64,000 bases of DNA from an uncultured Desulfobacteraceae bacterium (GTDB lineage Bacteria > Desulfobacterota > Syntrophobacteria > BM002): the NCBI GenBank assembly GCA_964346905.1, contig CAYFXH010000001.1, positions 1,280 through 65,279 on the forward strand. The letters run 5' to 3'. The position numbers were made by a program, and so were the translations under genes. The notes under the pieces were generated by a model. It searched no databases, was not told the DNA's origin, and saw only the letters and a program-made list of their open reading frames with translations. This document shows positions 31,286 through 50,482 of this stretch, piece by piece; positions within the stretch are counted from its first letter, which is position 1; every line of letters starts with the position of its first letter.

Positions 31286-31556
31286 AAAATCCGGCTAGAA
31301 AGGAAATTGCAGAGGTAACCTTTTCTCTTAGACAAAAAACATACCAACTCCAGTGTTTATGAAAATTCCTAATCTTAACGATTATTTAGCTAAGACTACC
31401 AAGGGAATCGCAGCAAAAAGATTGGCAATAAAATCCATAGATTTGGAAAAATCATTCTACTAGTTAGCACTATGATGGCTTGAATGAAACGGGCGAAAAT
31501 CGACTTGCGGGTATACATAGGGGACGTTGTTTACAAAGGGCTTTTAATTCTCTTCT

Positions 31557-33131: not shown

Positions 33132-33347
33132 ATGGCGATATCAGGAAAATATGGCAAAATAGACATTCCGAAAATAGGCGAAGAGGAACCGGTATTTATC
33201 TTGCGGGCCCAGGACAGGCTTGCTGATGGGATCATCGAAATATACAAAGTCATAACCTCTATGCACGGGTCTGGACTTGGTGAAGAGCTCGACAAGGAGA
33301 TAGATCGTTTCCGCAGCTGGAGCGGCCAGAAGAAGATGCCAGATTAA
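33132..33347 (+). CDS. Hypothetical small protein (71 aa)
   Basis: Internal Met of ORF 32952..33347 with AAGGAGG RBS 6 nt upstream; no recognisable domain. Confidence 0.35.
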   Translation: MAISGKYGKIDIPKIGEEEPVFILRAQDRLADGIIEIYKVITSMHGSGLGEELDKEIDRFRSWSGQKKMPD

Positions 33348-33524
33348 ACGAGATAGTCATACAATTCTCGGTTCTCAGAGGGAGAATTGCACAATTTCAA
33401 CATCTTCTCTGTTTTCCGTTCATGGATGAGATAGAGGTGAGAGCATCTAGTCTATATCCTCGATACGGTACGTATGTTTCGGTCCATTGTCGGAATTTTC
33501 TGCCCAGCAAGAAAGGAAAGCAAC

Positions 33525-33815
33525 ATGGTGTTTGAACGGTATTATCTAGACTTGTTTGAGATGCTTAATTCAGCCTGCAAAAAGATTGCGCGTGGTAACT
33601 ATGAAAAATCAGATGCCGATAAATTATTTGAACTTGCAAAAACGGGCAGATATCCGAGTCTCCTGGTAGAATTGGCCGAATCATTTGGAATGATGCTGGT
33701 CAAAGTTGAGGCCAGAGAATTTGAACGCTCGCAGATCATCGAAGAACTCGAAAAGGCCAAAGCCAAGCTTGAGGACTATTCACAGAAATTGGAAAAACAG
33801 ATTGAGGAGTGCTGA
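33525..33815 (+). CDS. Hypothetical coiled-coil protein (96 aa)
   Basis: Met18 of ORF 33474..33815; C-terminal EELEKAKAKLEDYSQKLEKQIEE heptad-like segment; no known domain. Confidence 0.3.
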   Translation: MVFERYYLDLFEMLNSACKKIARGNYEKSDADKLFELAKTGRYPSLLVELAESFGMMLVKVEAREFERSQIIEELEKAKAKLEDYSQKLEKQIEEC

Positions 33816-33885
33816 ATAAACAGAGACACGGTCACGCAACTATACGTTTTTAGGGGGAGAATTGCATGACCGTCCACCTTTTCCG

Positions 33886-34593
33886 CTACTTATCTGGCGG
33901 TCTGAGTTTCATCCCGAAAATCAACACCAACGCTATGCCAATTATACCGTAAAGCCCAATATTGCTTATTTCTTCCGGGCTGGGATATCGTTTGTTGGGA
34001 TAACGCCAGAGGACGATTCTGGGGTCTAATTCCACCGACTTTCTGTAATCTGCAAGGGCACGTTTGGTCTGGCCGAGCTTCCAGTAGACCTTGTACCTGG
34101 TTTTATAGGCGTCTGCCTTACTTCGCGGAATGCCTTTACGCTGGGTCGCTCGAGTAGCATCTCGGATGGCTTCCTGGTCCTTGCCCATCAGCCGATACGT
34201 TTCAGCTCTGTTGGCGTAAGCTTGGGCTTGCTCCGGTTCCATCTCGATGGCACGGCTGAAGTAATGAAGAGCCGGTTCATAGCTTCCCTTGTTTAGATAG
34301 CCCATTCCAACCATCCTGTAGGCCTCGGCTTTTGCAGGACCGATCTCAAGGTAGCTCAGAAAGTCTTGAATGACTTTTTCATAGTTCTCTTGAAAATAAT
34401 AAAGCCTTCCTCGTCTTTCGTAAGCCTCTGCCCAGCTGGGATTTAGCTCCAAAGCCTTGGTGAAATATTCGATCTTTTTGCGGGTGACGGAGCTCTCGAG
34501 TCCGAGGTTAAAATATGTCATGGCATCTTCGCTGTGGGCGGGGGTGGCACCCAGCAAAATAACTAACGCAAGGAATAGAAACCTTTTTCTCAT
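33886..34593 (-). CDS. TPR-repeat protein with signal peptide and C-terminal membrane anchor
   Basis: Start Met19 (AAGAGGA RBS). Signal MRKRFLFLALVILLGATPAHS, five TPR units (AEAYERRGRLYY, AEAYRMVGMGYL, AQAYANRAETY...), C-terminal hydrophobic helix. Confidence 0.65.
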   Translation of the reverse strand: MRKRFLFLALVILLGATPAHSEDAMTYFNLGLESSVTRKKIEYFTKALELNPSWAEAYERRGRLYYFQENYEKVIQDFLSYLEIGPAKAEAYRMVGMGYLNKGSYEPALHYFSRAIEMEPEQAQAYANRAETYRLMGKDQEAIRDATRATQRKGIPRSKADAYKTRYKVYWKLGQTKRALADYRKSVELDPRIVLWRYPNKRYPSPEEISNIGLYGIIGIALVLIFGMKLRPPDK

Positions 34594-34936
34594 TTTTTCC
34601 TCTTTCTTGCTACACTCGCTAACACCAACACGCAACAAAGGCACCATCTCACAACCATCCGCACCTCTATTACCGCTCTGGAGTTGTGGGCCATCTAAGG
34701 TTCATCGTATCTGCCTGATGAACAACCTGGACCCTGGTTAAACTAAACATCCAAAATGGGAAGCGCAAGTATCAGCTGCTTTTTTGCTACACGAAAGGAC
34801 AGACTGTTTGCAAGGGTGCATGCAATTGACTCCGGTGACCGAGCTGGTTACCATTCAGAGCTTAAATAGTCACATCTCCTGGTGACTACAAGAGAGCATT
34901 TGAAGGTCCGCTTAATCCGTTGCCAACTCGACGGGG

Positions 34937-35416
34937 ATGGATACACATCTATTCTTGCAAACTTTTCATTCTCGTAAACGCATGTCTGTGATGTTTGAAT
35001 GTATTCAGCTTATATCCGTTCTGTATCTTTGTGGATTAATATGGACGGTTCAGCTGGTGCACTATCCCAGCTTTCGCTACGTGAACGGTGGTGAATTCTC
35101 TCAGTTTCACGAACATCATTTTAAGAAAATCTCCATCGTTGTTATTCCGGCCATGATAACAGAGGCAGTTTCGGGTTCTTATCTTCTGTTTGCAAAACCC
35201 TCGTATGGCAATGCCTTACATTTCTTTCTATTCAGTATTTTGCTAATCATATGGCTCAGTACTTTTCTCATCCAAGTACCGCTTCACAGGAAATTGAAAG
35301 AAGGTAAGAATCTGGAGAAAATAAAGACCCTTGTAGCAACAAATTGGATTAGAACGTGTGGGTGGAGTTTGAGGTCGATAGTTCTCTCCGCATTGTACGT
35401 ATCAAGCGGTATATAA
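34937..35416 (+). CDS. Hypothetical integral membrane protein (4 predicted TM helices)
   Basis: 159 aa hydrophobic segments; no motif recognised. Confidence 0.4.
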   Translation: MDTHLFLQTFHSRKRMSVMFECIQLISVLYLCGLIWTVQLVHYPSFRYVNGGEFSQFHEHHFKKISIVVIPAMITEAVSGSYLLFAKPSYGNALHFFLFSILLIIWLSTFLIQVPLHRKLKEGKNLEKIKTLVATNWIRTCGWSLRSIVLSALYVSSGI

Positions 35417-35498
35417 CGAAATAGATCGGATAATTTTAAGACTGTAATAGATAACCACCAAGATATTTATTTGAATTGATTAGAAGAAAGGCAACAAA

Positions 35499-35927
35499 AT
35501 GAATGAAAAAACTGATATCATGAAAATATTTGATTACGACACGAATTTTCAAGCCATAATGAGGTATTTGCTGGAGAATGCAATGGAACACTCTTTCGAC
35601 GCGATTATGATAACAAAGGCAGAACCCGGCTACCCGGTTATTTATATCAACGATGCCTTTACCGTACTCACTGGCTACAGCGCCGAGGAGATAATCGGTA
35701 AGTCACCAGCTGTTTTGCAAGGGCCCAAGACGGATCGTGCTGTATTGGATCGACTGGAGCGAGAATTATCAGAGGGTCGGCTTTTCCACGGTGAAGCGAT
35801 TAATTATCGCAAAGATGGTTCTGAATTTGTGATGGAGTGGAAGATCGTCCCCATCAAAAACAAAAGAGAAGAAACCTCCCATTATCTTGCCATTCAACGA
35901 GACGTTACCAAGTTGAGAAATCATTAG
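35499..35927 (+). CDS. Stand-alone PAS domain protein, LOV-like but lacking the adduct-forming cysteine
   Basis: 142 aa; DAIMITKAEPGYPVIYINDAFTVLTGYSAEEIIGKSPAVLQGPKTD aligns to the LOV core (GKNCRFLQGPETD), with the Cys position occupied by Pro. Confidence 0.6.
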   Translation: MNEKTDIMKIFDYDTNFQAIMRYLLENAMEHSFDAIMITKAEPGYPVIYINDAFTVLTGYSAEEIIGKSPAVLQGPKTDRAVLDRLERELSEGRLFHGEAINYRKDGSEFVMEWKIVPIKNKREETSHYLAIQRDVTKLRNH

Positions 35928-35935
35928 GTAAATGC

Positions 35936-37042
35936 ATGGAAGACGAACTGAGACAAGTTTTAAGTTACTATGACCTGGGTGAACCCAGAAGCATTCAACG
36001 GGTCGAGTGTGGCTTTGTCAACGACAACTGGGTGCTTGAAACAACCCGTGGACAATACTTTTTGAAGCGCCGCCATACTGACTTGCGAAATCCAGAAGTT
36101 ATCTGCTTCCAGCATGACCTCATGCAGCATCTCAGGCAGGCGGAATTCCCGGCTCCAGCCATTCTGCCCACCATAAGCGGAGAAACTTTTTTGGTGCATG
36201 CTGGCGAGTTCTACGAGATTCAGGAGTATATCAACGGGGCACCATGCGAACACTTTTCTCCACCGCATATACACGTAGCCGCTCTGATGCTTGGCCACTA
36301 CCATGCTTGCGTTCGGGACTTCGTCCCCAGACCCCTGTGTGATTTTGGGGATCTCTACAGTCCTGCTATCCTCATAAACAACCTGACCAGACTATCGGAG
36401 GCTTGGGCCCTCCATCGGGACCCTACCCTGAGGCAAATTGTCCATCAGTTGGAGACCCAGGCGGAAGAACTAGCGGCTCTTTTCACCGAGCATGGAGAGC
36501 TCCCCCATCTGGTAATCCACGGTGACTATCACGCGGGCAACCTTCTGTTCCAAGGTGACCGTATCATTGGAGTGGTCGACTATGACAAGTCTTGCTACCA
36601 GCCTCGGGTTGTAGAGTTGGCCGAAGCCTTGATTTACTTTGCCTCGACCCGGCCAGGTCATCTAAAGCACCTGGTGTATCTCGGTTTTCTTGAGTGGGGT
36701 ACGTTCATGACATTCATGTACCATTATGGTTGTGGACTCAGCTCCTTTGCCAAGGAACCTGTCCAGTACGACCACCGTCCGGAGGCAGATCGGCCCAGCG
36801 ATCTAGCCTGTCAGGCTGGGGACGTTTTTCTCAAGGCAAACGAAGTGTACGCCCTGCCGGACTACATCCGTTGCATCTGGCTTTCGGTCTCGCTCCAACG
36901 GCTGTTGGAAAAAACCTCCCGCTCACCAGTAGCTCTGGAAGCCCTGCGAGAGGTACTGGCACTGGGGCAATGGGCCGCCACCAATAGGGAACGGATTATC
37001 CACTCCGCGCTAGAAAAAATATCTGACGTGGCAGAGCGTTAG
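35936..37042 (+). CDS. Phosphotransferase-family (APH/choline-kinase-like) protein
   Basis: Start Met34 of ORF 35837..37042, 8 nt after the PAS stop. Brenner motif VIHGDYHAGNLLF and DYD catalytic/metal motif. Confidence 0.7.
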   Translation: MEDELRQVLSYYDLGEPRSIQRVECGFVNDNWVLETTRGQYFLKRRHTDLRNPEVICFQHDLMQHLRQAEFPAPAILPTISGETFLVHAGEFYEIQEYINGAPCEHFSPPHIHVAALMLGHYHACVRDFVPRPLCDFGDLYSPAILINNLTRLSEAWALHRDPTLRQIVHQLETQAEELAALFTEHGELPHLVIHGDYHAGNLLFQGDRIIGVVDYDKSCYQPRVVELAEALIYFASTRPGHLKHLVYLGFLEWGTFMTFMYHYGCGLSSFAKEPVQYDHRPEADRPSDLACQAGDVFLKANEVYALPDYIRCIWLSVSLQRLLEKTSRSPVALEALREVLALGQWAATNRERIIHSALEKISDVAER

Positions 37043-37091: not shown

Positions 37092-37691
37092 ATGATAAAA
37101 GCTATCATTTTCGATTTCGGCCGGGTCATCTCGACCCAAAAGCCGCCATCCCTCTTCAGCGGCTATGAAAAGGATTTGGGACTCCCCCCCGGAACGCTCA
37201 ACCCTATTATGTTCGCTAGCCGGGCCTGGCAAGATACCTTGATTGGCCACAAGACCATTGAAGAGTTCTGGGACGAAATTGGGCCCAAGCTTGGACTGAA
37301 TACTCCCGAGGAAATTGAGGAGTTCCGCCGTCGGTACCGGGCTGATGAAGCGGTTAACGAGGGTGTGCTGAATCTACTCCATCGGCTGCACGGCCATTAC
37401 AAGCTGGCGGTACTCTCCAATGCACCGCCTGGCCTGGGCCAATGGCTGGGCGACTGGGGGATGCTCCATCTGTTCGATGTGCTGTTCTGCTCCGGAGACG
37501 AAGGCGTGGTAAAGCCAGAGCCGGCTGCTTTTACTATCACCCTAGAACGACTCGGCGTGGAGCCCAATGAAGCAGTGTTCATTGACGATACACTGGAACA
37601 CGTGGAGGCAGCCAGGACACTGGGGCTGCACGGAATACTGTTCACCACCGCAGAAGCTCTGGAGGCGGAATTAGATGGCTTACTTGCTTGA
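37092..37691 (+). CDS. HAD-superfamily hydrolase (subfamily IA)
   Basis: 199 aa; motif I IKAIIFDFGRV (DxD-type), SNAPP motif II, GDE...D motif IV region. Confidence 0.75.
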   Translation: MIKAIIFDFGRVISTQKPPSLFSGYEKDLGLPPGTLNPIMFASRAWQDTLIGHKTIEEFWDEIGPKLGLNTPEEIEEFRRRYRADEAVNEGVLNLLHRLHGHYKLAVLSNAPPGLGQWLGDWGMLHLFDVLFCSGDEGVVKPEPAAFTITLERLGVEPNEAVFIDDTLEHVEAARTLGLHGILFTTAEALEAELDGLLA

Positions 37692-37712: not shown

Positions 37713-38363
37713 ATGGCGACCGTTGTGAGCAATGACCACATTAAAATTGATCGGTTAGAATTGGGGCCGTTCGGCACTAATGGGTACATCTTAACCTGCC
37801 AAAAGACACAAGAGAGTGTGGTGATTGACGCCCCCGGCCAAGTCGACAGAGTCCTGGAAGCGCTGGAGGATACACACCCCCAATACATCCTAATTACTCA
37901 TGACCATTTTGATCATGTGGGTGGTCTTTCCCGGTTGAAATCAGCCTTGAACGTTCCCGTCGCTGCCCACCCTGCAGATGGTGACGGGCTTCCCCTACCT
38001 GCGGATATTCTCCTACATGACGGTGAGGTACTATCCTTTGGAGCCAGAGAGCTTACGGTGTTGCACACACCGGGCCACACTCTGGGAAGCATATGCTTGC
38101 TGACCGGGAATTACTTGATTGCGGGGGATACGTTATTTCCGGGAGGTCCGGGTAAAACCCAATCACCCGCAGACTTCCGGCAGATTATTGAATCCATAAC
38201 CCAGAAGATTTTCACATTGCCGGACAACACCCACGTGTATCCCGGACACGGGGAAGCAACAACGGTCAAGGAGGCAAAAAAACAGTACGAGGTTTTCTCA
38301 ACCCGACCGCACGATCCGGATCTTTGCGGGGATGTGGTTTGGGATAAATCGCAGAGCGCATAG
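37713..38363 (+). CDS. MBL-fold metallo-hydrolase
   Basis: 216 aa; ITHDHFDHVGG (HxHxDH) and downstream His/Asp ligands. Confidence 0.8.
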   Translation: MATVVSNDHIKIDRLELGPFGTNGYILTCQKTQESVVIDAPGQVDRVLEALEDTHPQYILITHDHFDHVGGLSRLKSALNVPVAAHPADGDGLPLPADILLHDGEVLSFGARELTVLHTPGHTLGSICLLTGNYLIAGDTLFPGGPGKTQSPADFRQIIESITQKIFTLPDNTHVYPGHGEATTVKEAKKQYEVFSTRPHDPDLCGDVVWDKSQSA

Positions 38364-38499: not shown

Positions 38500-39195
38500 T
38501 TACCAACCTATTACCACTCGGTGAAAACCTTCCGCCAGTTCAAAATCCTCCCCTTCAGCCATCTCCCTGCACCGCTCTCTCAGCCAATCTTCAGGGTCCG
38601 GATTGGGGAATCCCTGTACCTGGCTCTGGTGGCAACGTAGGGCCGCAATTTTAAGATCAAAGGTATCGGTGATGTCCGAGCGATAGTTAATGTCTTCCGC
38701 CGCCCAGAATAAGATCTCATCTACATTGTGAGGCTCCAAACCTTCCTCTAACAAATCAGGGTAGGCAAGATGATCCCGAGAGTACGGGAAAACTGCATCG
38801 AGAGTAACCTGCCCGGCAATGCGATGGTCGCGATGCCAGAGGTAACGACGGTAGGGATCCGAGGTCACCACGATCCTGGGCTGGTACATGCGTATAAAGC
38901 GAACGATCTGCTTACGAAATTCCGGCGTGTCTTCCAACTCCTGATCCGGGTATCCCAGGAATATTACTTCTCGGACCCCAAGGATCTTGGCCGCAGCCTG
39001 TTGCTCCTTTTTTCTGATTTCGGCCAATTGTTCAGGTTTGAGGCTCCGGTCGCTGGTTCCCTTGTCGCCATTGGTGCAGACAACGTAGACAACCTGCTTT
39101 CCTTCTCTGGTCCAGCGCGCTACTGTTCCTGCCACCCCGAATTCGGCGTCATCCGGATGAGCTGTTACCACCAGTACGTCCGTTGCTTTCGTCAC
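38500..39195 (-). CDS. PIG-L/LmbE-family N-acetylglucosaminyl deacetylase (MshB/BshB-like)
   Basis: Start chosen at GTG (Val71 of ORF 38500..39405) with AGGAGG RBS 6 nt upstream, giving 232 aa; signature VLVVTAHPDDAEFGVAGT and downstream His/Asp. Confidence 0.75.
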   Translation of the reverse strand: MTKATDVLVVTAHPDDAEFGVAGTVARWTREGKQVVYVVCTNGDKGTSDRSLKPEQLAEIRKKEQQAAAKILGVREVIFLGYPDQELEDTPEFRKQIVRFIRMYQPRIVVTSDPYRRYLWHRDHRIAGQVTLDAVFPYSRDHLAYPDLLEEGLEPHNVDEILFWAAEDINYRSDITDTFDLKIAALRCHQSQVQGFPNPDPEDWLRERCREMAEGEDFELAEGFHRVVIGW

Positions 39196-39250
39196 AACGA
39201 ACCTCCTAAAAAGTCGAGACTCGAGTAGTTCAATGAAATACCGAATGATG

Positions 39251-40459
39251 TTACCTGAGTATGGCTGTGTATTCTTCCAGCATAGCGGACGCCACATTTG
39301 CCCAGCTAAATTGGAGGACCGACGCGCGAATTGCTTCAGCGGATAGTCCGTTGGAGTTCGAGATAAAAGCTTCGATACCGTTTGCCAGTAAACGGGGAGA
39401 ACCATTGGTCACCAGATGTCCTGTCTCACCTTGGCGGAGGATGCTCTCCATAGCCCCCACCTTCGTTGCCACCACCGGTGTGCCAGAGGCGAGCGATTCC
39501 AAGGCCACCAGCCCAAAGCTCTCGTAGTAAGAGGGCACAACCAAGACATCTGCGGCATTGTAGTACGGCGGCAGGTTATCCTGTTCGATCCTTCCCACAA
39601 AGGTCACGGAATCCTGAATACCCAACTTCCAGGATAATCTTTGGAGGTTTTGCGACTCCGGTGTATGATGGCCATCGCCACCGACAATTACCAGTCGAAG
39701 CCTTTGATGATTCAGAAGGCGGGCCACGGCCTCAAGCAATCGGTCTATTCCCTTCAATGGCGCAAATCTGCCCACGAACAACACAATCGACTCATCCTCC
39801 GCAAAACCCAACTGCTCTCGCGCCCTCGCTTTGTCCCATGGGCGGAAAAGATCCAGGTTGACACCACACGGTACAACGCCAATTGTCGCAGAGGACGCCC
39901 CATAGTGTTGCATTAGATGGTCTCTTTCTCTGTGGGTGGCGACGAGAATGCGGTTACAATTATGTGCCAAATGCTGTTCGGTGGCTGTACGCAGTTCGGG
40001 TTCTTTCTCCGCACCAACTGTACTGTTCTTTACCGCGCCAACAGTATGGAACATGAAAAGATGAGGGACTTCCCAGCGTTCATGGGCCCATTTCCCCACC
40101 CGACCGGAGAGCCAGTAGTTACTATGTACAAGGTCATAGTCCAACGACTCGTATGTTCTAAATCTTTCCAGCTCCCGGAAAAAATCAGGCAGATAGGGAT
40201 AAAGTGCCAATTTGTTCATATCACCGTTGTTCCCGGCTTTTAGATGAATGAGTCGGACGTTCTCACATAGTTCAACTCTCTGAGTATCAGCTGCATTACT
40301 GAGACGCGTATAAATGTCGACCAAATGGCCGCGGTTTCCCAGCTCCCGGGCAAGCTCACGGACATAGACACTCATGCCTCCGGTGTCTTTTGTCCCTAAT
40401 TCTCCTAGCGGACTTGAATGAACGCTCAACATTGCAATTCTTAACTGTTCTGCTTCCAC
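39251..40459 (-). CDS. GT4 glycosyltransferase of the MshA/BshA (N-acetylglucosaminyl-transferase) family
   Basis: 402 aa; IAMLSVHSSPLGELGTKDTGGMSVYV, DLVHSNYWLSG, HTVGAVKNS, PSYYESFGLVALESLASGTPVVA align block-for-block with Corynebacterium MshA (from memory). Confidence 0.75.
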   Translation of the reverse strand: MEAEQLRIAMLSVHSSPLGELGTKDTGGMSVYVRELARELGNRGHLVDIYTRLSNAADTQRVELCENVRLIHLKAGNNGDMNKLALYPYLPDFFRELERFRTYESLDYDLVHSNYWLSGRVGKWAHERWEVPHLFMFHTVGAVKNSTVGAEKEPELRTATEQHLAHNCNRILVATHRERDHLMQHYGASSATIGVVPCGVNLDLFRPWDKARAREQLGFAEDESIVLFVGRFAPLKGIDRLLEAVARLLNHQRLRLVIVGGDGHHTPESQNLQRLSWKLGIQDSVTFVGRIEQDNLPPYYNAADVLVVPSYYESFGLVALESLASGTPVVATKVGAMESILRQGETGHLVTNGSPRLLANGIEAFISNSNGLSAEAIRASVLQFSWANVASAMLEEYTAILR

Positions 40460-40503: not shown

Positions 40504-41481
40504 TCAGAGTTTAATCTGGCATCTATACAAGGTAACAGGTTTACCTCCCAACCGATGTTTGTAATCCTCTGCGCCTTTGAGAAAATCGTACCTCTCTTTT
40601 CCTCTCTGAATGCTTTCTTGAATGGTGAATACCTTACTGAGCAGACCCACGTTCAGCGAACTGAATCTGCCGTCATACCCATTGTTGTAAAGATATATCG
40701 TCGAATTATAATCAAAACACATCACCGCGGCTGCAGGTGTCCCGTCAAGTTCGAGGATAAACAGTTGCAATAGCTTGAGCGTTGCCATTGTCTCGGCCAG
40801 TGACCGAAAAAAAGAAGCCATCTGACTAGTCATAAAAGCTGCCTTATCGGCTCGACTCAATCCAAACAGCGCCAAAAAGGTGTCCATTTCCTCCAGGACT
40901 TCTCTTACATCCTCCACAACCCGATATCTGATGTCTGCAGCCTCATCTAATCTCCTGAGTTTTCGTCTCACTTCGTGCCGCTGTTTTCCGGTCAACATGT
41001 GCAAGAATTCATCCCAGCTTGCCGGCAACTCTAACTCCAGGGTAACATCCTCGGGATCGCAAAAAACCTCGCACTCCAGCGCTTTGGCCACGTTGACAAA
41101 ATCGGTGAGCACTTTAGAGTCGGCACGTACGGAGTTCAGATCCAGGTGAGTGATACCCTGCTCCCTTAAATGATTGATGAGAATCTCAGAAAACTCCCCT
41201 ACCCTCCCAGGGGTGACGATGAAATCTTGGTAATCGCAAACATCAGGATCGCCCATGAAGCGGGCCTCTCTTCCTTCCAGCAAAAACGGCGCGATACCGA
41301 TCACTTCTTCCCCGTCTTTCACCGCGTAGAGGGAGGGAGCCAATTCAGCACTGAATACGTTCCACCATACCTCCAGCCAGCCGGGCAAAACAAAGAGACA
41401 ATCCCACTCCAGGACATATCCCGGATCTAGCCAGTAAGAGGCGAGATTTTCAAAGGTCTCTTCAGTTACGGTATATGCCAT
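40504..41481 (-). CDS. FemAB/CelD-like tandem-GNAT acyltransferase (Acetyltransf_6-like)
   Basis: Start Met27 of ORF 40504..41559 (GAAGGTGA RBS). ~326 aa with two GNAT-like halves; architecture typical of aminoacyl-tRNA-dependent transferases (FemX/FemAB) and CelD; no precise motif verified. Confidence 0.5.
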   Translation of the reverse strand: MAYTVTEETFENLASYWLDPGYVLEWDCLFVLPGWLEVWWNVFSAELAPSLYAVKDGEEVIGIAPFLLEGREARFMGDPDVCDYQDFIVTPGRVGEFSEILINHLREQGITHLDLNSVRADSKVLTDFVNVAKALECEVFCDPEDVTLELELPASWDEFLHMLTGKQRHEVRRKLRRLDEAADIRYRVVEDVREVLEEMDTFLALFGLSRADKAAFMTSQMASFFRSLAETMATLKLLQLFILELDGTPAAAVMCFDYNSTIYLYNNGYDGRFSSLNVGLLSKVFTIQESIQRGKERYDFLKGAEDYKHRLGGKPVTLYRCQIKL

Positions 41482-41574
41482 GGTCACCTTCGGAGTATTG
41501 GTACTGTAACGATTGCGGATTGCGGAATTTGGTGATTTCCCTGCTTTGCAATCCTTCATGCTGAAATCTGTAAT

Positions 41575-42006
41575 CTACAAGCTGACCTTGCCGCCGCTTC
41601 TAAAATCTCCACCACCCGTACCAAGTCTTCCAAGGGAGCTGCTATTGGCTCTCCCGTCAACAAATGATCGGCTAGGTTCCGATGAAAAAGATAATGCTCT
41701 CGTTTGGGCAATGCCAGTTTTTGGGTGATAAGTAGTACCTACTGGGATCGCATCATGGGAATGCCAGTAGCCACAGGGGTGCGCAAAACTGCCCACGAAG
41801 GTCTCCATGTAAAAGAGGTCGCCAATCAGCCCATGAGCGAGTGCTTGTTTAATCGCCAAGTAGTCCACGTCCCACCGCCGGTTTTGGTGGCAGCTCAGAT
41901 GCACCCGCTGTTTTTTGGCCATCTCCACCATGGCGGCTGTTTCCTTTTGGCTCAATGCCAGGGGCTTTTCACAGACCACATGCTTCCCTGCTGCCATCAT
42001 TTGCAA
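41575..42006 (-). pseudogene. Gfo/Idh/MocA-family oxidoreductase remnant (N-terminal Rossmann region and C-terminal domain missing)
   Basis: ORF begins at AAGKHVVCEKPLAL, the motif that normally lies ~90 aa into Gfo/Idh/MocA proteins. Only 75 nt separate it from the upstream gene. C-terminal 40 aa are low-complexity, suggesting frameshift. Confidence 0.5.
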
Positions 42007-42080
42007 AGATAAGTTTGCATGGGAGTTCGGTGGGGTGGCTAATCATTTTCCTTTAACCCTCACAGTTCCTGGTTTCTTGC

Positions 42081-43334
42081 CTATGACTTCAGTCGCCACT
42101 GCGCGCCATCTCCAGTATCCTCAACTATTATGTCTGCTCGCTGGAGGCTGTCGCGGATGACGTCGGCTTCTTGCCATTGTTTCTTTTGTCGGAACTCCTG
42201 GCGCAACTTGAGTAGCTCTTCCACGAGAGGGGCAAGACAATCAGCCCTATTTTTTGGAGAAGCCTCAAGTCTCATTCCTAAAATGACTATCAAATCTCGA
42301 AAAATTTCTTTAGCTTGGGAAATGAATTCCTCGTTTTCATGATCCTGCTTGGCTCTCCAGATAACCCGATCAAGCTCCAAAAGAGCGTTGGTGGCTTCTT
42401 TCGGTTCGTCTTTTTCGAGGCCGAGCCGAAAGGTGTTTTCGATTGCATGAATGGTATCCCAGAAGGACTCTGCATCAACATCAGAGGTAGGTTTGAAAAT
42501 CGCTTGCTTTGGGGTTGTCGGTTTCCACTCCTTACCCATCTCTCCTCCACGGAGAACATCAAGAGAAAAACGGTCACCCTTTTCAAAGACCAACTCAGCT
42601 CCCCGACAACGTAGGGTCGCAGTGCCGAGTCCCTTAATGAGAGCTTCTTCTTTTTCAAAATCAATGAGGCAGGCCGTATGTTCATCCAAGCCAAAAATGG
42701 ATACATCCTTGGGCAAGAGGGACTCGAGCTTGCGAAAGCGCGATTCACCCATGAAACAGAAACGGGTGTCGTGAGTCCCACCTTCAGCGTTGTTCCAATG
42801 GGGAATCACCACCAGATTGAAGCCGAAGTGGTGGAGTATATTCATCCCCTCCACCCAATGCAGGTCTTCGCCCACCTTGTAAATCTCATAGACTGGGAGA
42901 GTGAAGCGTCCCAGGGTCAGGGCGGCAGCACTGGCAGCCACTAGGCAACCGCCGGATTCGATCTGCTTTATCAAGATTTCAGGTACGGGTGTTTGCTGCC
43001 ACTGGCGAAGGGCATACGTCGGACTTCCTGGGCCAATCAGAATAAAGTCGGCCTCCCGCAGCGTATGAAAGGCCTGCTCGGCTTCGTATGGTGTGATCCT
43101 CTCGTTTGACTGAAACGAGGCTGTTGACATGGGTTGTTGAACATGGATACGAAAATAATCCAAGGCTCTCTTGGATATCTGATCAACATTAAGCTGAAAG
43201 CCAGCCGGCGTATCGAGAAATACGGCTCGGGGATCTTGAGCAAATCCCGCCAGTAACTCCTTGTGAACTTCAACCATGGTTGCAGTGAGTTCACCTGAGC
43301 CCATGAGGGCGATAATTCCTTTCCTTGATGACAC
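42081..43334 (-). CDS. Fusion protein: peptidase S51/cyanophycinase-like (class I GATase-like) N-terminal domain + C-terminal tRNA-anticodon-binding region of cysteinyl-tRNA synthetase
   Basis: 417 aa. N-terminal IALMGSGE...FLDTPAGF...ILIGPGSPTYALR...GGCLVAASAAALTLG resembles the S51 fold. C-terminal ...LRQEFRQKKQWQEADVIRDSLQRADIIVEDTGDGAQWRLKS aligns with E. coli CysRS C-terminus ...[39 protein letters not shown] (from memory). No HIGH or KMSKS motifs present. Confidence 0.6.
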   Translation of the reverse strand: MSSRKGIIALMGSGELTATMVEVHKELLAGFAQDPRAVFLDTPAGFQLNVDQISKRALDYFRIHVQQPMSTASFQSNERITPYEAEQAFHTLREADFILIGPGSPTYALRQWQQTPVPEILIKQIESGGCLVAASAAALTLGRFTLPVYEIYKVGEDLHWVEGMNILHHFGFNLVVIPHWNNAEGGTHDTRFCFMGESRFRKLESLLPKDVSIFGLDEHTACLIDFEKEEALIKGLGTATLRCRGAELVFEKGDRFSLDVLRGGEMGKEWKPTTPKQAIFKPTSDVDAESFWDTIHAIENTFRLGLEKDEPKEATNALLELDRVIWRAKQDHENEEFISQAKEIFRDLIVILGMRLEASPKNRADCLAPLVEELLKLRQEFRQKKQWQEADVIRDSLQRADIIVEDTGDGAQWRLKS

Positions 43335-43749
43335 GCCGAACTTCTTTCCAGTGAGCCACAGAGGCCACTGATCATTGGATTGAGTTCAGAGACTGCTGAG
43401 CTACCGTCTCCATTGATAATCAAAACCGACACCCAACTGGATAAGATAAGCCACTTTTGTTAACTAGTAAAGGTCACACCATGTTCTTTGCTGAAGAGAG
43501 AGCTTCACTTTGCGCATTGGACGGGATGCTTCCATGTTTAGTAGTCTCTGCCAAGATCTATCCCAGACGGCAATCGCTGGGGGTACAGAGGACGTCTTGA
43601 TCACACACGAAGAGCTCGGCAGGTAAGATGAGACCCGTGCAACGTGTTTCCGGTTGGCACACCCCTTGCTTCTGTATATGTATTGCAATCTGTGGCAACC
43701 AGTAGTCTGCACCATTCACTGGTCTACTTTGGTGAAGCGAGAACGAGAA

Positions 43750-43980
43750 ATGACGTACATTTGCATAAAATGTAGAAAAACCTGGGTCAGTGGAACTCAT
43801 ACTGATCAGTATTCCGGGGGATTGTGCCAAGCGTGCACTACGGAGTACATTAGAGAGAGGCAAAAAAGCCACGGGTTTCATGATTGCTTCAAACGGGCAG
43901 TTGAAGTCTGTTCAAGAGACGAATGCAGTTACTGGCTCTTGTGCAACAGAGATCTTATGGAGAAGAGGGGATGTGCGTGA
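43750..43980 (+). CDS. Small Cys-rich (9 Cys / 76 aa) putative zinc-ribbon protein
   Basis: Internal Met of ORF 43654..43980; CIKC...CQAC...HDC...C...DEC pattern; weak RBS, so uncertain. Confidence 0.25.
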   Translation: MTYICIKCRKTWVSGTHTDQYSGGLCQACTTEYIRERQKSHGFHDCFKRAVEVCSRDECSYWLLCNRDLMEKRGCA

Positions 43981-44107: not shown

Positions 44108-45208
44108 CTACTTCGAGGCCAGCATGTAACCTTTCCGGGCCATGTGGCTGGTTAGCAGACCGTCTAGACCGTTGTAAAACACCAGGAGAATGAGGGCAAC
44201 GATAAGACTCTCCTGCTCTCCGCTCAAAAACGCCAATATCACCACCGCCCAAATCACCATCGAGCCCAATAATTCCAGACTGCCTAACAACGTGTGACCG
44301 AGATACATGTCTCTCAATCCGGGCAATAACAAAGATCTCAAAAAAGCTGTCTTTGGGTTTTTAAACTCTGCCTGGCATTTTGGGCATGCAAGCAAGTTTT
44401 TCGCAAGCGGCACGTAACAGGAGGGACAGAGGTCTTCAACCGCAGCTTCCGCTGTCTTTGCGGCCTTGAAAAGACGCTGCCTTTCCCGAACAAATTGTTG
44501 AAAATCTTTCGCCATGTACCGCTTCATCCCGGTAAAGATACGACGTTTGCCTTTCTGCCGGTGGAGTACGAGACTCGTGCCGAACAGACCCGTCCCAACT
44601 TTGCTGATGGTCTCATAGGGTATCTGGAAAAAGTAGTGGGTCGGCTTTGAAATTTTTTGATTTACATTGATGAACAGGAGTCTCTGACTGGTGCCCACCA
44701 CTGCATAGTGATTGTACAGCGTCGTCAAGTAGCCGTTTCCAAAAATAATCTCTGATGGGTAATAGGCCGTTGCTTTACCAATTCGCATGGCTTGCTCATC
44801 GCTTAGTAGCATTTTATCCAGCGTTCCATGCACCGCCTTAAGAATTTTGACCTTAAACGTGTTTCTTCTGGTCTTATAGGCTCCTTTTTTACTGGGGGTA
44901 ATCATTCCATCAAGCTTCAGTTTTTCAGAGGTCAGATTCTGCAACTCCGGGTATTCAGTGATGAGAGTTAATTCAGACTCAGACCGATCTCTTTCCTGGG
45001 GAATTTGGTAGTTTGCATCATTGGACGGAGGTGTTACAGCAGCAAAGTCGGACACCATCTGGGCATCCAGAATCATGTCTTGCTCCCCATGCGGCTCAAC
45101 GAGAAATTTTCCTCCACATCTTTTGCAACTGGCTTGAACGGGCTTTTCCGGGATTTTGTCGCTTGCAACCTTGTACTGAGTGTTACAGATGGGACAAACA
45201 ATCTGCAT
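44108..45208 (-). CDS. Membrane protein with N-terminal MJ0042-type zinc ribbon, central bacterial PH-like domain, second CxxC...CxxC pair and C-terminal TM helices
   Basis: MQIVCPICNTQYKV...CKRCGGKF; later CPSCYVPLAKNLLACPKCQAEF; hydrophobic C-terminus. Confidence 0.5.
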   Translation of the reverse strand: MQIVCPICNTQYKVASDKIPEKPVQASCKRCGGKFLVEPHGEQDMILDAQMVSDFAAVTPPSNDANYQIPQERDRSESELTLITEYPELQNLTSEKLKLDGMITPSKKGAYKTRRNTFKVKILKAVHGTLDKMLLSDEQAMRIGKATAYYPSEIIFGNGYLTTLYNHYAVVGTSQRLLFINVNQKISKPTHYFFQIPYETISKVGTGLFGTSLVLHRQKGKRRIFTGMKRYMAKDFQQFVRERQRLFKAAKTAEAAVEDLCPSCYVPLAKNLLACPKCQAEFKNPKTAFLRSLLLPGLRDMYLGHTLLGSLELLGSMVIWAVVILAFLSGEQESLIVALILLVFYNGLDGLLTSHMARKGYMLASK

Positions 45209-46921: not shown

Positions 46922-47698
46922 ATGTGGCAGACAGAGATGAAGAAGATGGTTGGGTTGCTTGTGACGGTACTGTGGCTGGTCTTTTTTGCTCACCAGACGG
47001 CAACCGCTCACTTCGGTATGATCATTCCTTCAGATGAGATGGTTATGAGGGGGGAAAGCCCGAATGTCGCCGTGCAGCTCATGTTCTGGCACCCCTTCGA
47101 AGGTCAGGGAATGGAACTGGCGAAGCCCGCACAATTTGGCGTGGTGGCAAACGGCAGCAAGCAGGACTTGTTACATACGCTCAGTTCTAGAAAGATCAAA
47201 GAACATACCACCTGGCAGACTACCTATCGAATCAGGCGGCCCGGACTTTATATTTTTTACATGGAGCCGCAGCCTTACTTGGAGGCTGCGGAAAATTCTT
47301 ACATCATTCATTACACCAAGACCGTAGTTGCAGCTTATGGTAAGGACGAAGGCTGGGATGAACCCATCGGCCTGAAAACCGAAATCGTCCCCCTAAGCAG
47401 ACCTTTTGGCCTTTACGTGACCAATGTGTTTCAAGGGGTGGTTATGCGCAATGGGAAACCCGTGGCCGGTGTCGAGGTGGAAGTCGAGTACTTCAATGTG
47501 ACTGGTACGTATTCCGCCCCTACGGACTACATGGTGACCCAGACCACTAGGACCGACCCGAACGGGGTTTTTACTTACGCGGTCCCCAAGGCTGGCTGGT
47601 GGGGTTTCGCCGCCATCACCACTGATGATCACCAAATCAACGGTAAAGATGTGGAAATTGGCGCTGTGCTATGGGTCAAGTTCCATCTGATGCAATAG
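46922..47698 (+). CDS. DUF4198-family periplasmic component of Ni/Co ECF transporter (NikK-like)
   Basis: 258 aa, signal peptide, adjacent and upstream of cbiM in same orientation; start may be Met6. Confidence 0.55.
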
Positions 47699-47707
47699 GA
47701 AAGAGCC

Positions 47708-48322
47708 ATGCATATTTCTGAAGGAATACTGTCAGCACCCGTGCTGATTACCGGTGCAGCCCTCACAGCTGCCGGTGTTGCCGTGGGGCTAAGGAAGATG
47801 GACAATGAGAATATTCCCCGGGTTGCCGTCTTGACCTCGGCGTTTTTCGTCGCTTCACTGATACGTGTACCTCTGGGCCCTTCCGCTGTGCATCTGGTTT
47901 TAAACGGCCTTCTCGGGTTGGTACTTGGCTGGGCCGCATTTCCGGCTATTCTTGTGGGCGTGGCGCTCCAAGCCCTCCTTTTTCAGTTTGGCGGGTTGAC
48001 TACTCTGGGTATAAATACCTTCATCATGGCCATGCCCGCTATCCTCTGCTATTACTTCTTCGCCAGAACCATTATCCAGAAACAATCAGGGGTGGCCATG
48101 GCCCTTGCCTTTGCCAGCGGCTTTGTTGCAATCTTTCTGAGTGCTCTCCTGTTGGCCCTATCTCTAAGATTTACGGGAGAATCGTTTCTCGAGGCAGCCA
48201 AGCTTCTCGTGGTAGCACACCTTCCCGTGATGGTTCTCGAGGGTGCTGTTGCCGCCTTCTGTTTGGCGTTCCTCATGAAGGTCAAACCAGATCTCCTGGG
48301 AGCACCTCATGCCACCGGGTAG
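47708..48322 (+). CDS. cbiM: ECF transporter substrate-specific component CbiM/NikM
   Basis: N-terminal MHISEGIL (hallmark MHIxEG), 5-6 TM helices. Confidence 0.85.
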   Translation: MHISEGILSAPVLITGAALTAAGVAVGLRKMDNENIPRVAVLTSAFFVASLIRVPLGPSAVHLVLNGLLGLVLGWAAFPAILVGVALQALLFQFGGLTTLGINTFIMAMPAILCYYFFARTIIQKQSGVAMALAFASGFVAIFLSALLLALSLRFTGESFLEAAKLLVVAHLPVMVLEGAVAAFCLAFLMKVKPDLLGAPHATG

Positions 48323-48971
48323 GAAACGGAGTCTTTTTCAGAAGGCGGCCATTGCCAGCTTCGTTGGAATCTTGCTCGCCTCGACGCTGATGGCCACCAG
48401 TCTCCTGGCCCACAAGGTGAACGTGTTTGCCTGGGTTGAGGGTGACATAATCTTCGTGGAGGGCTATTTCCCCGGTGGCAAAAACGCGCAGAATTCACTG
48501 GTGGAAGTATTCAACCAGGCTGGAGCCAAACTTTTGGAAGGAAGAACCAACGAAAAGGGCGAGTTCTCCTTCAAGACTCCAGAAAAGACCGATCTTAAGA
48601 TCGTGCTCAGCGCCGGGATGGAGCACAGGAACGACTTCACTGTGTTTGCCAGCGACTTTGCAGAAACAGCGCCATCGCCGGCCGCACCCTTCCGAGAACT
48701 CCAGGAGAGCGAGACACTCTCCGGTGAGGTTGATGAGGACATGCGGCGGCTGGAAGCACTAATCAACCGAACGTTGGACCGCAAGCTTACCCCGGTAATC
48801 AAACTCATCCGCGACTCCAGGAGAGAGGGCCCGACTTTTTCTGAGATCGTTGGAGGTATTGGTTATATTTTCGGACTCGTTGGGGTGGCGCTTTATTTTA
48901 GTAATAGAAAAAAGAAAGAAGGCGGTCAGCGGTCAGCGGTCAGCGGTCAGCAAGATACGGACGGGCAGTAA
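48309..48971 (+). CDS. CbiN/NikL-like accessory membrane protein with periplasmic beta-sandwich-like domain
   Basis: N-terminal TM, HKVNVFAWVEGDIIFVEGYF...EKGEFSFKTPEKTDLKIVL, C-terminal TM; position between cbiM and cbiQ. Confidence 0.45.
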   Translation: MPPGRKRSLFQKAAIASFVGILLASTLMATSLLAHKVNVFAWVEGDIIFVEGYFPGGKNAQNSLVEVFNQAGAKLLEGRTNEKGEFSFKTPEKTDLKIVLSAGMEHRNDFTVFASDFAETAPSPAAPFRELQESETLSGEVDEDMRRLEALINRTLDRKLTPVIKLIRDSRREGPTFSEIVGGIGYIFGLVGVALYFSNRKKKEGGQRSAVSGQQDTDGQ

Positions 48972-49052
48972 TCATTTCCAAGTGCTGCTGTACGAATTAT
49001 CACCTGTTGCGTTTTGATTCTTGCTTATAGCTGACGGCTGATAGCTGATAGC
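48923..49052. repeat. (cggtcag)x4 tandem at the 3 end of 48309..48971 and imperfect inverted copy gctgacggctgatagctgatagc 60 nt downstream
   Basis: Seen directly; encodes GGQRSAVSGQQ tail; arms could pair as a 3 hairpin. Confidence 0.5.
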
Positions 49053-49061
49053 TCAAAAGAA

Positions 49062-49820
49062 ATGCACATAGATAACTTCGCCAGCGGAGATTCCCTTCTC
49101 CATCGTCTCGATCCCCGAGTGAAAATAGTCGTCGCTACGCTGTTTTCTGTGGTGGTTGCCCTCGCAGATAACTACCTTTGCCTGGTGACAGCTGTTGGCG
49201 TAGCTGTCACTTTGCTGCTTGTGGCCCGGCTCTCTTGGAAACAGGTCGCTCTCCGTTTGCTCGCGGTAAACACCTTTATTTTCTTCCTTTGGCTTTTTTT
49301 GCCTTTCACCTACGGAGGTGAAGAACTCTTCAGTATCGGTCCCTTGCACGCTACACGTGAAGGGATTGGTTACGCCCTGCTCATCACGGTAAAGTCGAAT
49401 ACCATTGTGCTCGGACTGATCGCGCTGCTCGCCACCAGTCCCATTATCACCCTTGGCCACGCTATGAGCCATCTTCATGTTCCCGACAAATTGATTCATC
49501 TTTTCTTCTTTACCATCCGGTATCTCCAGGTACTCCATTTGGAGTACGAGCGGTTGCGTGATGCCATGAGGATTCGCGGATTCAAACCTCGCTCCAACCT
49601 GCACACCTACAAAAGCCTAGCTTATCTCATTGGCATGCTCTTGACCAAGAGCTTTGATCGGGCTGAACGCATTAGAAAAGCAATGCTCTGTCGAGGATTT
49701 CACGGAAAATATTATCTCATTAGTCATTTTAAGCTGAAGAGAGGCGACATGGCCATGTTTGTCTTCATGATGCTGATCATAAGTGGGATGGTGGCGTTGC
49801 AATGGCTAACCCCGAAGTAA
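49062..49820 (+). CDS. cbiQ: ECF transporter transmembrane (T) component CbiQ
   Basis: 252 aa multi-TM; conserved ARG-containing C-terminal loop (AMRIRGF...RIRKAMLCRGF). Confidence 0.8.
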   Translation: MHIDNFASGDSLLHRLDPRVKIVVATLFSVVVALADNYLCLVTAVGVAVTLLLVARLSWKQVALRLLAVNTFIFFLWLFLPFTYGGEELFSIGPLHATREGIGYALLITVKSNTIVLGLIALLATSPIITLGHAMSHLHVPDKLIHLFFFTIRYLQVLHLEYERLRDAMRIRGFKPRSNLHTYKSLAYLIGMLLTKSFDRAERIRKAMLCRGFHGKYYLISHFKLKRGDMAMFVFMMLIISGMVALQWLTPK

Positions 49821-50482
49821 TCATAAACGTGAACCGGATCTCCTTTGCGTACCATGGGAACCAAGCCAAACGGCCGGTTCTGGATGATCTCAATTTCCAG
49901 CTAATCCGCGGGGAACGGGTGGGTTTGATCGGCGCCAATGGCAGTGGTAAGACCACGCTTTTTCACCTGATCATGGGGCTCCTGCCACCGACCCGGGGAG
50001 ATATTGAGGTGTTCGGCGAGAAGCGAAGACAGGAAAAAGATTTCAAAGAAGTCAGAGAGAGGATCGGTCTGCTCTTTCAGGATGCCGATGATCAACTTTT
50101 CTGCCCCACGGTGGCCGAAGACGTGGCCTTCGGTCCGCTGAACCTGGGAAAGACCCAAGAGGAAGCAGGAGCTATCACTCAGGATATCCTAACGAGGCTC
50201 GGGCTGGAAGGTTTTCAGAAGCGTTTAACCTATAAGCTTTCAGGAGGGGAGAAACGGCTGGTTGCTTTGGCCACTGTCCTGGCCATGCAACCAGAAGTTC
50301 TCATCCTTGATGAACCCAGTACCGGCCTCGATGAAGATACGATGAAACTACTCGTCCATATACTCAACAACTCTGACCTTACCTACCTCATCGCCTCCCA
50401 CAATACCGATTTTCTGACACAGACCACTGATGTTATCTACCGGCTGGCAAATGGGAAGATAACCAGAACAACTGAGAGCTAA
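49802..50482 (+). CDS. cbiO: ECF transporter ATP-binding (A) component CbiO
   Basis: Walker A GANGSGKTT, signature LSGGEKRL, Walker B ILILDEP. Confidence 0.85.
   Translation: MANPEVIINVNRISFAYHGNQAKRPVLDDLNFQLIRGERVGLIGANGSGKTTLFHLIMGLLPPTRGDIEVFGEKRRQEKDFKEVRERIGLLFQDADDQLFCPTVAEDVAFGPLNLGKTQEEAGAITQDILTRLGLEGFQKRLTYKLSGGEKRLVALATVLAMQPEVLILDEPSTGLDEDTMKLLVHILNNSDLTYLIASHNTDFLTQTTDVIYRLANGKITRTTES

Follow-up and report, generated by a model that had tools for sequence, protein, structure and literature searches.

A gene at positions 42081 to 43334 of a 64,000-nucleotide stretch of DNA from an uncultured Desulfobacteraceae bacterium (the whole stretch is here called the window) was found to encode a protein in which a peptidase S51-type domain is followed by the tRNA-binding C-terminus of cysteinyl-tRNA synthetase (CysRS). 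The homology of the two halves to S51 enzymes and to CysRS is far beyond chance, and the fusion, here termed S51-CysS_C, is real and biologically interesting. The explanation that we prefer, and hold tentatively, is that the protein is a tRNACys-directed acyl enzyme which would act at the 3' end of the tRNA, with transfer of cysteine as the preferred outcome.

Domain architecture and conserved residues of the fusion

The fusion gene starts with GTG, and the N-termini of homologues coincide with this start (e.g., MSSRKG... in locus L034). An AlphaFold2 model of the protein (mean predicted local distance difference test score, pLDDT, of 89.5; predicted template modelling score, pTM, of 0.74) displayed an alpha/beta domain (residues 1-262) and a disordered linker (residues 270-285), followed by five helices and, last, a small domain with a beta-hairpin. 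The gene, its domains and its predicted catalytic codons were located as follows.

42081 to 43334, minus strand: whole S51-CysS_C fusion gene, GTG start, 417 residues (open reading frame (ORF), Pfam/NCBIfam, AlphaFold2, Foldseek and family profile)
42549 to 43334, minus strand: S51 (PepE/cyanophycinase-like) domain, residues 1-262 (Pfam, Foldseek, profile and alignments)
42480 to 42548, minus strand: interdomain linker, residues ~263-285 (predicted disordered, pLDDT below 50 at residues 270-285)
42084 to 42479, minus strand: CysRS-derived DALR_2-like helical bundle and alpha/beta CysS_C anticodon-binding domain, residues 286-417 (Pfam, NCBIfam, profile and alignments)
42930 to 42932, minus strand: codon of Ser135, predicted triad nucleophile (aligned with the SAGA serine of 6nqc and of twelve standalone S51 paralogues)
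42798 to 42800, minus strand: codon of His179, predicted triad residue (aligned with the PH motif of 6nqc and the standalone paralogues)
42681 to 42683, minus strand: codon of Glu218, predicted triad residue (aligned with the DE motif of 6nqc and the standalone paralogues)

The original prediction had recognized by eye the anticodon-binding tail of CysRS in the last ~110 residues. This likeness was borne out by Pfam CysS_C (PF23493; residues 367-414, E = 3.7e-10, over the cut-off), by a weak Pfam DALR_2 match (residues 313-356) and by the cysS model TIGR00435, of which positions 362-464 of 466 were aligned to residues 313-414 (33.8 bits vs a cut-off of 340). A profile was built from an alignment of 54 diverse fusion members, which is also the source of all conservation counts given below. 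This profile matched solved CysRS chains with E values of 7.8e-16 to 7e-11, its positions 293-416 corresponding to residues 332-460 of E. coli CysRS. The nearest solved sequence relatives of the tail were the CysRS C-termini of 3tqo, 8qhp and 1li5/1u0b, and Foldseek analysis of the tail retrieved chain B of 1u0b, the CysRS-tRNACys complex. The region related to CysRS was found to be slightly longer than proposed, at about 125-130 residues, and its match to CysRS at the profile level argues against an unrelated coiled coil. The synthetase core was likewise missing as claimed, with no match to the catalytic domain PF01406 and no HIGH or KMSKS string in the 417-residue sequence.

Anticodon-contact residues of E. 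coli CysRS in the 1U0B complex include Arg427, Trp432, Asp436 and Arg439 (PMC13449415, a 2026 study of engineered E. coli CysRS). By HMMER alignment to 1li5, these four residues correspond to R382, W387, D391 and R394 of the fusion. Residue 382 is Arg in 52 of the 54 members and Lys in the other 2, residue 387 is aromatic in 53, and D391 and R394 are found in all 54; R378 and W413 are also invariant. The motif R-x3-R-x4-W-x3-D-x2-R with its GCA-contacting residues is kept in the fusion tail which, as judged by alignment, is more than CysRS-like in that the residues predicted to read GCA are retained. CysS_C was present in all ten length variants of the fusion that were checked, and none of these ten had the anticodon domain of another aminoacyl-tRNA synthetase joined to this S51 subfamily. 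In a 370-residue short form the helical bundle is lost and the alpha/beta motif is kept behind a Pro/Ala-rich linker.

For the N-terminal part, Pfam Peptidase_S51 (PF03575) matched residues 9-225 at E = 8e-5 and 22.8 bits vs a cut-off of 23.9, a threshold that some homologues pass. The S51-type Ser-hydrolase fold that had been suggested for this part was confirmed by the family profile, which matched the solved structure 6nqc at E = 3.9e-14, and by Foldseek analysis of the AlphaFold2 model, which retrieved 6nqc, 7ffp, 6a4r, 3en0, 7uqw and 1fy2 at E values of 1e-14 to 1e-10. Template modelling (TM) scores for the S51 part reached 0.84 (6nqc), with PepE and cyanophycinase also matched; 6nqc, labelled 'cyanophycinase-like exopeptidase', is the nearest solved sequence relative. 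The string GGCLVAASAAA (residues 128-138), earlier put forward as a possible nucleophile elbow, was found to hold Ser135 in alignment with the SAGA serine of standalone S51 proteins. The predicted Ser135-His179-Glu218 triad, assigned by analogy to the catalytic residues of PepE, is near-invariant (S135 in 53/54, H179 in 54/54 and E218 in 52/54 members). Two conserved insertions, PVYEIYKVG and NAEGGTHDTRFC, set the fusions apart from standalone S51 paralogues; both adjoin the active site and are rich in Tyr, Lys, His and Arg.

The standalone paralogues are proteins of ~230-260 residues with classic GG/SAGA/PH/DE motifs and without the fusion-specific insertions. Such a paralogue is the immediate neighbour of the fusion in 12 loci or more (L023-L025, L029, L030, L034, L036, L047, L050, L053, L057 and L058) and is also found beside it in L125 (L125:1577-2356) and L126. 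The 6NQC structure, from an acI-B1 actinobacterium, may be a standalone S51 partner of this kind.

An ordinary dipeptidase E or cyanophycinase-like peptidase, with a helical tail unrelated to tRNA, would agree with the database names 'peptidase E' and 'cyanophycinase-like exopeptidase' that are attached to family members. This explanation is highly improbable and was already disfavoured by the match of the tail to CysRS at 7.8e-16 and by its invariant anticodon-contact residues. The fusion is, moreover, no conventional peptidase E by model score, as it reached 14.8 vs a cut-off of 156 with the PepE equivalog NF003642, and no cyanophycinase model was matched in the NCBIfam/Pfam scans.

The S51-CysS_C fusion is an old, very large and uncharacterised family. 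Two word-indexed protein searches, one from this protein and one from an actinobacterial member, gave at least 8000 matches each. When the 50%-identity representatives were searched exhaustively, 460 clusters were obtained at E <1e-30, most of which span both domains, and at least 588 stretches encoding the fusion were detected in a scan of one genome per species. Carriers include Desulfobacterota, Nitrospirota, Nitrospinota, Firmicutes (Syntrophomonadaceae), Chloroflexota, Actinomycetota, Rokubacteria and others; within the Desulfobacterota sample, the fusion occurs in 38 of 301 genomes and is patchy by family. Source names among the matches listed were all automatic ('peptidase E', 'cyanophycinase-like exopeptidase', 'CysS/YqeB C-terminal domain-containing protein', 'type 1 glutamine amidotransferase-like domain-containing protein' and 'hypothetical protein'). 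Full-text literature searches found no paper describing the fusion or its operon. The family is already in the databases, with no description found in the searchable literature.

A conserved operon with FemX-like, MshA-like and PIG-L genes

In the window the fusion gene is followed on the same strand by a dehydrogenase relic and three intact genes, and two further genes lie beyond these on the opposite strand.

41598 to 42042, minus strand: relic of a long Gfo/Idh/MocA dehydrogenase gene (two fragments, equivalent to residues 274-378 and 496-540 of a 557-residue orthologue)
40504 to 41559, minus strand: FemX-like tandem-GNAT protein, 351 residues (Pfam Acetyltransf_6, weak FemAB_like, AlphaFold2/Foldseek)
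39251 to 40459, minus strand: MshA-like GT4 glycosyltransferase of the D-inositol-3-phosphate glycosyltransferase type (TIGR03449, C. glutamicum MshA)
38500 to 39405, minus strand: PIG-L family deacetylase, BshB1/MshB-like (PF02585, sub-cut-off NCBIfam models)
37713 to 38363, plus strand: MBL-fold hydrolase, best match hydroxyacylglutathione hydrolase GloB (glyoxalase II; 2e-28, below the cut-off)
37092 to 37691, plus strand: HAD-family phosphatase, a candidate for dephosphorylation of N-acetylglucosamine (GlcNAc)-inositol-phosphate

ORFs were called and clustered in 84 fusion loci. The gene order in closer relatives was a standalone S51 gene (optional), S51-CysS_C, a long and a short dehydrogenase gene (both optional), FemX-like, MshA-like GT4 and PIG-L. 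Among the 32 closer-relative loci with at least 5 kb of downstream sequence, a FemX-like gene was found in 21, GT4 in 22, PIG-L in 14 and the dehydrogenase pair in 13. Loci with an operon headed by the fusion span at least three phyla, the fusion being in this position in Desulfobacterota, Nitrospirota and Nitrospinota. Judged by its genes, the operon appears to make a mycothiol-like compound of sugar and inositol with the use of charged tRNA. An inositol-3-phosphate synthase gene (TIGR03450, 1e-121) flanks the operon in 7 census loci and in L097 and L098, a HAD phosphatase gene lies near it in 6 loci and a GloB-like gene in 8. This genome has three inositol-phosphate synthase homologues (C80:9318-9644, C80:13314-13649 and C3:58686-59024), two of them 4 kb apart, which suggests substantial inositol metabolism beyond the operon.

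The partners were further compared with known enzymes. The GT4 protein matched the MshA model TIGR03449 over its full length (1.3e-109, 366.8 bits vs a cut-off of 462.5), and its best solved relative was C. glutamicum MshA (2.4e-75). Of the functional residues of MshA, equivalents of K78, Y110, H133, T134 and R154 are kept, with N25 replaced by Ser. The PIG-L protein (PF02585, 1e-36) matched the BshB1, BshB2, Mca and MshB models, all below their cut-offs. Its ORF as listed overlaps the GT4 gene by 155 nucleotides, the PIG-L domain begins only at residue 78 and orthologues are ~232 residues long; the true start is, by this comparison, probably an internal codon. The FemX-like protein matched PF13480 above its threshold and scored 24.7 vs a cut-off of 27 with PF04339, and the MshD model was not among its NCBIfam matches. 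The closest structures to its AlphaFold2 model (pLDDT 92.4) were, by Foldseek, FemX, FemA, Sbb17/Sba18 and MprF/aminoacyl-phosphatidylglycerol synthases, and the tandem GNATs that use acetyl-CoA gave lower TM scores than the users of aminoacyl-tRNA. Sbb17/Sba18 are aminoacyl-tRNA-dependent enzymes solved with streptothrisamine. On the basis of the models, tRNA-dependent N-aminoacylation of a glucosamine (GlcN) amine would be the natural reading of the GT4, deacetylase and Fem-like trio; the fold alone would be compatible with an acyl-CoA donor for the FemX-like enzyme as well. In another family, FemX-like and MshA-like GT4 domains were found in one 705-residue ORF (L099:8144-10261, plus strand), and these two partners are therefore tied by a Rosetta-stone link.

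The long dehydrogenase is similar to glycoside 3-dehydrogenases (DgpA) and to inositol dehydrogenases, and the full gene has a ThuA-like N-terminus. In the window its relic ORF is a 143-codon fragment and the short dehydrogenase gene is gone; a tblastn search of the assembly (E 1e-30 or better) detected neither gene in intact form. The loss appears from this comparison to be a recent deletion within a conserved operon, since in a same-genus genome (L118) the intact pair still separates the fusion from the FemX-like gene. With the fusion, FemX-like, GT4 and PIG-L genes intact, the contribution of the dehydrogenases is therefore dispensable in this lineage.

As for the wider neighbourhood, the GloB-like, HAD phosphatase and an APH-family kinase gene are convergent to the fusion operon. 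Upstream of the fusion are a 107-residue ORF (43558-43881, minus strand) with no family match and a gene (44108-45208, minus strand) for a 366-residue protein whose N-terminus has a zinc ribbon of the MJ0042 type; in other loci neither is conserved beside the fusion. Scans of the fusion locus for Rfam families, promoters and terminators gave nothing above background. A Co/Ni uptake cluster of the DUF4198-CbiM-CbiQ-CbiO type (46922-50482, plus strand) lies upstream at a distance of about 4 kb and recurs near the fusion in relatives (L120, L079-L087 and L038); a link of the fusion, or of its putative thiol product, to Zn/Ni/Co homeostasis is possible. Genes for an extracytoplasmic function (ECF) sigma factor and a zf-HC2 (ZAS-type, RsrA-like) anti-sigma factor lie directly upstream of a FemX-like/GT4 operon (L096:6402-7963) and, in the same genome, also beside a gene for a CysRS-GT2 protein (L105:2616-3497). 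Their placement would fit thiol or oxidative-stress regulation. Elsewhere in the window, the region 26001-36000 has a GC content of 0.43-0.49 vs 0.49-0.58 over most other parts (the first 4 kb are also at ~0.47). Its GC skew shows a strong negative spike at 26-28 kb, and the region may be of different origin.

Proposed mechanism and competing explanations

In the explanation that we prefer, we infer that tRNA is bound and that its ester bond is the target, and likewise which acceptor and which product are involved. The C-terminal module inherited from CysRS would grip the GCA anticodon and anticodon stem of tRNACys, with the S51 domain in the place held by the synthetase core in CysRS. The Ser135-His179-Glu218 triad would attack the ester bond that joins cysteine to the 3' end of tRNACys, to form a Cys-O-Ser135 intermediate. 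In the preferred sub-variant, the cysteinyl group would then be handed to the free amine of a glucosaminyl-inositol supplied by neighbouring enzymes: an inositol-phosphate synthase would provide inositol phosphate, the MshA-like GT4 would add GlcNAc, the HAD phosphatase would next strip off the phosphate and PIG-L would free the amine. Such a transfer would be equivalent to the MshC step in mycothiol synthesis, dependent on tRNA and independent of ATP, and the FemX-like enzyme would attach an N-cap or a second residue carried by tRNA. Transfer specifically onto a GlcN-inositol-type amine is a possible but doubtful outcome. If it occurs, the operon would map one-to-one on mycothiol synthesis, the second acylation falling to the FemX-like enzyme. 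Just as doubtful is the broader claim of a new class of aminoacyl-tRNA-dependent enzyme in which an S51 fold steered by an anticodon module would move cysteine between tRNACys and the amine of GlcN-inositol via Cys-O-Ser.

Several lines of evidence bear on the first steps. Binding of tRNACys and action of the triad at its 3' end are suggested because the catalytic and tRNA-reading parts keep the N-to-C order of CysRS and are both strongly constrained. S51 peptidases take acyl groups with a free alpha-amine, as a cysteinyl ester would offer. Precedent for an aminoacyl-serine made from aminoacyl-tRNA is provided by the cyclodipeptide synthases (CDPS), which form aminoacyl-Ser enzymes in a ping-pong mechanism (PMC7672478). 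The original prediction had proposed that such an architecture could recruit tRNACys or Cys-tRNACys for a non-ribosomal reaction, or hydrolyse an aminoacyl bond; this putative role is strengthened by the family-wide retention of anticodon-contact residues and by the conserved operon with FemX-like and MshA/MshB-like enzymes.

The genes for CysRS and thiol synthesis were surveyed in this genome, which is 95.5% complete. It has one separate, normal, full-length CysRS, and on this ground the fusion was ruled out as a substitute for an anticodon domain that the CysRS itself might lack. MshC had no match over the cut-off in this genome, the only notable match to TIGR03447 being the normal CysRS (317.8 bits vs 485); GshA and BshC gave no matches in the 95.5%-complete assembly and GshB a single 28-bit fragment. 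Among sampled genomes, an extra CysRS-type gene was found in 14 of 30 with a FemX-like gene and no fusion vs 0 of 35 with both. This pattern is suggestive only: it points to cysteine or tRNACys as the amino acid source of the pathway and is silent on the step taken by the fusion. The extra genes at first looked like MshC analogues. In one family the extra gene codes for a CysRS catalytic domain joined to a GT2 domain, described below; in others it is a second CysRS, divergent yet complete. A CysRS of this complete type is the only one present in another family, which is why the complementarity with the fusion is no more than suggestive. By hand count, at least two PF01406 matches were found in 98 of 233 genomes with neither gene, in 8 of 38 with the fusion and in 19 of 30 with a FemX-like gene and no fusion; in one family, a second CysRS is present in five genomes and the short fusion in one, and a further genome lacks both. 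Two CysRS derivatives belong to a family with FemX-like and GT4 genes and no fusion: a 729-residue protein with a CysRS catalytic domain and a GT2 glycosyltransferase without an anticodon domain (L105:3933-6122, minus strand), and an 832-residue protein with a pyridoxal phosphate (PLP)-dependent domain (PALP, cysteine-synthase-like) and a complete CysRS (L106:5381-7879, minus strand). ORFs of ~780-836 residues with a CysRS match were seen in many other sampled genomes.

A number of findings weigh against cysteine transfer by the fusion. FemX-like and GT4 modules, with or without PIG-L, occur without the fusion in 30 of 65 FemX-like-positive genomes, and the FemX-like enzyme may therefore itself be the cysteinyl transferase, with the fusion doing another job. 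Five Actinomycetota carriers have an MshC-like gene (~400 bits in four, over the cut-off in the fifth) and no FemX-like gene, and in this phylum the genomic context would suit breakdown or salvage no less than biosynthesis. In Syntrophomonadaceae carriers, genes near the fusion encode a small GNAT, a thioesterase and a nitroreductase, and a GlcN pathway is absent beside it. A second, dedicated tRNACys was not found, with one GCA gene among 38 tRNAs in an incomplete assembly. To these is added the S51 score, which falls just under the Pfam cut-off. Two related ideas were also discarded: non-orthologous displacement of MshC by the fusion in Actinomycetota was ruled out by the ~400-bit MshC-like gene of the carriers, and Firmicutes carriers as organisms with BshA/BshB and without BshC were unsupported, as BshC was not found and the GT4 matches were weak and not beside PIG-L or FemX-like genes.

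The modules that lack the fusion are accommodated by a tRNACys deacylase of trans-editing or quality control. In such an enzyme the anticodon module would select the tRNA and the S51 triad would hydrolyse an aminoacyl group that is incorrect or damaged (such as a mis-activated analogue or S-thiolated or persulfidated Cys), and the FemX-like enzyme alone would install cysteine on GlcN-inositol. The domain architecture fits this function equally, and the occurrence of the fusion without FemX-like or GT4 genes in Actinomycetota and Firmicutes fits a function that needs tRNACys only. Other actinobacterial copies of the fusion adjoin ZnuABC or CobW/HypA/NicO genes, which also counts in favour of a deacylase; the selectivity of CysRS depends on zinc, and the synthetase is not known to have an editing domain. 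A deacylase would leave unexplained both the linkage across phyla to a sugar/cyclitol dehydrogenase pair and the first-gene position in the MshA/PIG-L/FemX-like operon, and we know of no trans-editing factor with an S51 fold. We consider it unlikely.

The dehydrogenase linkage is also seen in some Actinomycetota, where the fusion follows an alpha/beta hydrolase gene (with a slight overlap in L122-L124) that is itself preceded by a long and short dehydrogenase pair. The actinobacterial long dehydrogenase is orthologous to the deltaproteobacterial one, with 43% identity. Since the pair lies beside the fusion in this phylum too, the cross-phylum module is the fusion with the dehydrogenase pair, with or without hydrolases. 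Such hydrolases and glycoside/inositol dehydrogenase-type enzymes would be suitable partners for a tRNA-gated amidase, in which the S51 domain would cleave a Cys-GlcN amide or a Cys dipeptide and the CysRS module would sense uncharged tRNACys, such that cysteine is freed when charging drops; the dehydrogenases and alpha/beta hydrolase would then degrade the leftover GlcN-inositol. That S51 enzymes are peptidases or amidases, that a standalone S51 paralogue lies beside the fusion in 12 surveyed loci and in L125/L126, and that carriers include mycothiol-type Actinomycetota already equipped with an MshC-like ligase are all in keeping with this proposal. Co-transcription with biosynthetic MshA-like and FemX-like genes would be odd for a degradative enzyme, and no bacterial precedent is known to us for a synthetase anticodon domain as an allosteric sensor on a hydrolase. 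An amidase of this type is thus distinctly unlikely.

A FemX-like homologue is present in 35 of the 38 fusion-bearing genomes of the Desulfobacterota sample. This tight co-occurrence could indicate an adaptor that only holds or delivers Cys-tRNACys to the FemX-like transferase, for specificity or EF-Tu protection, with the S51 domain as a docking scaffold. An adaptor would complement FemX-type enzymes, which contact the acceptor arm only (PMC2655667). The near-invariance of the triad and its surrounding motifs over at least 54 diverse members argues for catalysis instead, and the fusion is present in genomes without any FemX-like gene; we regard an adaptor as decidedly improbable.

Relation to known systems and significance

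The fusion was compared with enzymes that share its parts or its proposed role. Its C-terminal ~125-130 residues are homologous to the helical bundle and anticodon domain of CysRS (TIGR00435; 1U0B, 1LI5, 3TQO and 8QHP). Unlike CysRS, the fusion has no class I Rossmann core and, without HIGH and KMSKS, cannot activate cysteine with ATP. With the S51 enzymes (PepE, the cyanophycinases CphB/CphE and 6NQC) it shares the fold and a Ser-His-Glu triad in equivalent motifs. By contrast to PepE and cyanophycinase, it has the two insertions, a GSGE/GPGSP motif set and a C-terminal module predicted to bind tRNA.

The closest counterpart by proposed pathway step is MshC, which is also CysRS-derived and with which the fusion would share an operon-type association with MshA-like and MshB-like enzymes. 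The two are mirror images: MshC keeps the CysRS core, has no anticodon domain and uses ATP, whereas the fusion keeps the anticodon module only and would need pre-charged Cys-tRNACys. The likeness would thus be one of functional analogy only. Non-ribosomal use of aminoacyl-tRNA, as proposed here, is known from FemX/FemA/MurM, Sbb17/Sba18, MprF, L/F-transferase, CDPS and PEARLs. Of these, CDPS use a covalent aminoacyl-serine, Sbb17/Sba18 acylate the amine of an amino sugar, and a FemX-like protein is encoded next to the fusion in its operon. These transferases differ from the fusion in that they have no S51 fold and no anticodon-binding domain and recognise only the acceptor arm and aminoacyl moiety. 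YbaK, ProXp, AlaX and DTD hydrolyse the aminoacyl ester on particular tRNAs in trans, as a deacylase would; their folds are unrelated to the fusion and they generally have no anticodon module. We know of no editing factor for tRNACys. By analogy, the fusion would combine the traits of tRNA-specific trans-acting factors with those of aminoacyl-tRNA-dependent transferases, in a fold not known to serve in either role.

If cysteine transfer by the fusion is correct, a new catalytic fold would be added to the few enzymes that divert charged tRNAs from translation, and it would be the first with an anticodon-reading domain. Were the fusion to prove an editing factor or a tRNA-gated amidase, its function would still be new. 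Since the family is large and has automatic names only, one biochemical result would annotate very many genes. Cysteine transfer would further imply a tRNA-dependent, MshC-independent route to an undescribed mycothiol-like thiol in many anaerobes of the Desulfobacterota, Nitrospirota and Nitrospinota. A widespread, unrecognised thiol or cysteinyl-aminosugar-inositol metabolite would then be present in sulfate reducers, syntrophs and nitrite oxidisers that are without genes for glutathione, bacillithiol and canonical mycothiol, with a bearing on the redox buffer of these organisms and on how cysteine may be attached without MshC or BshC.

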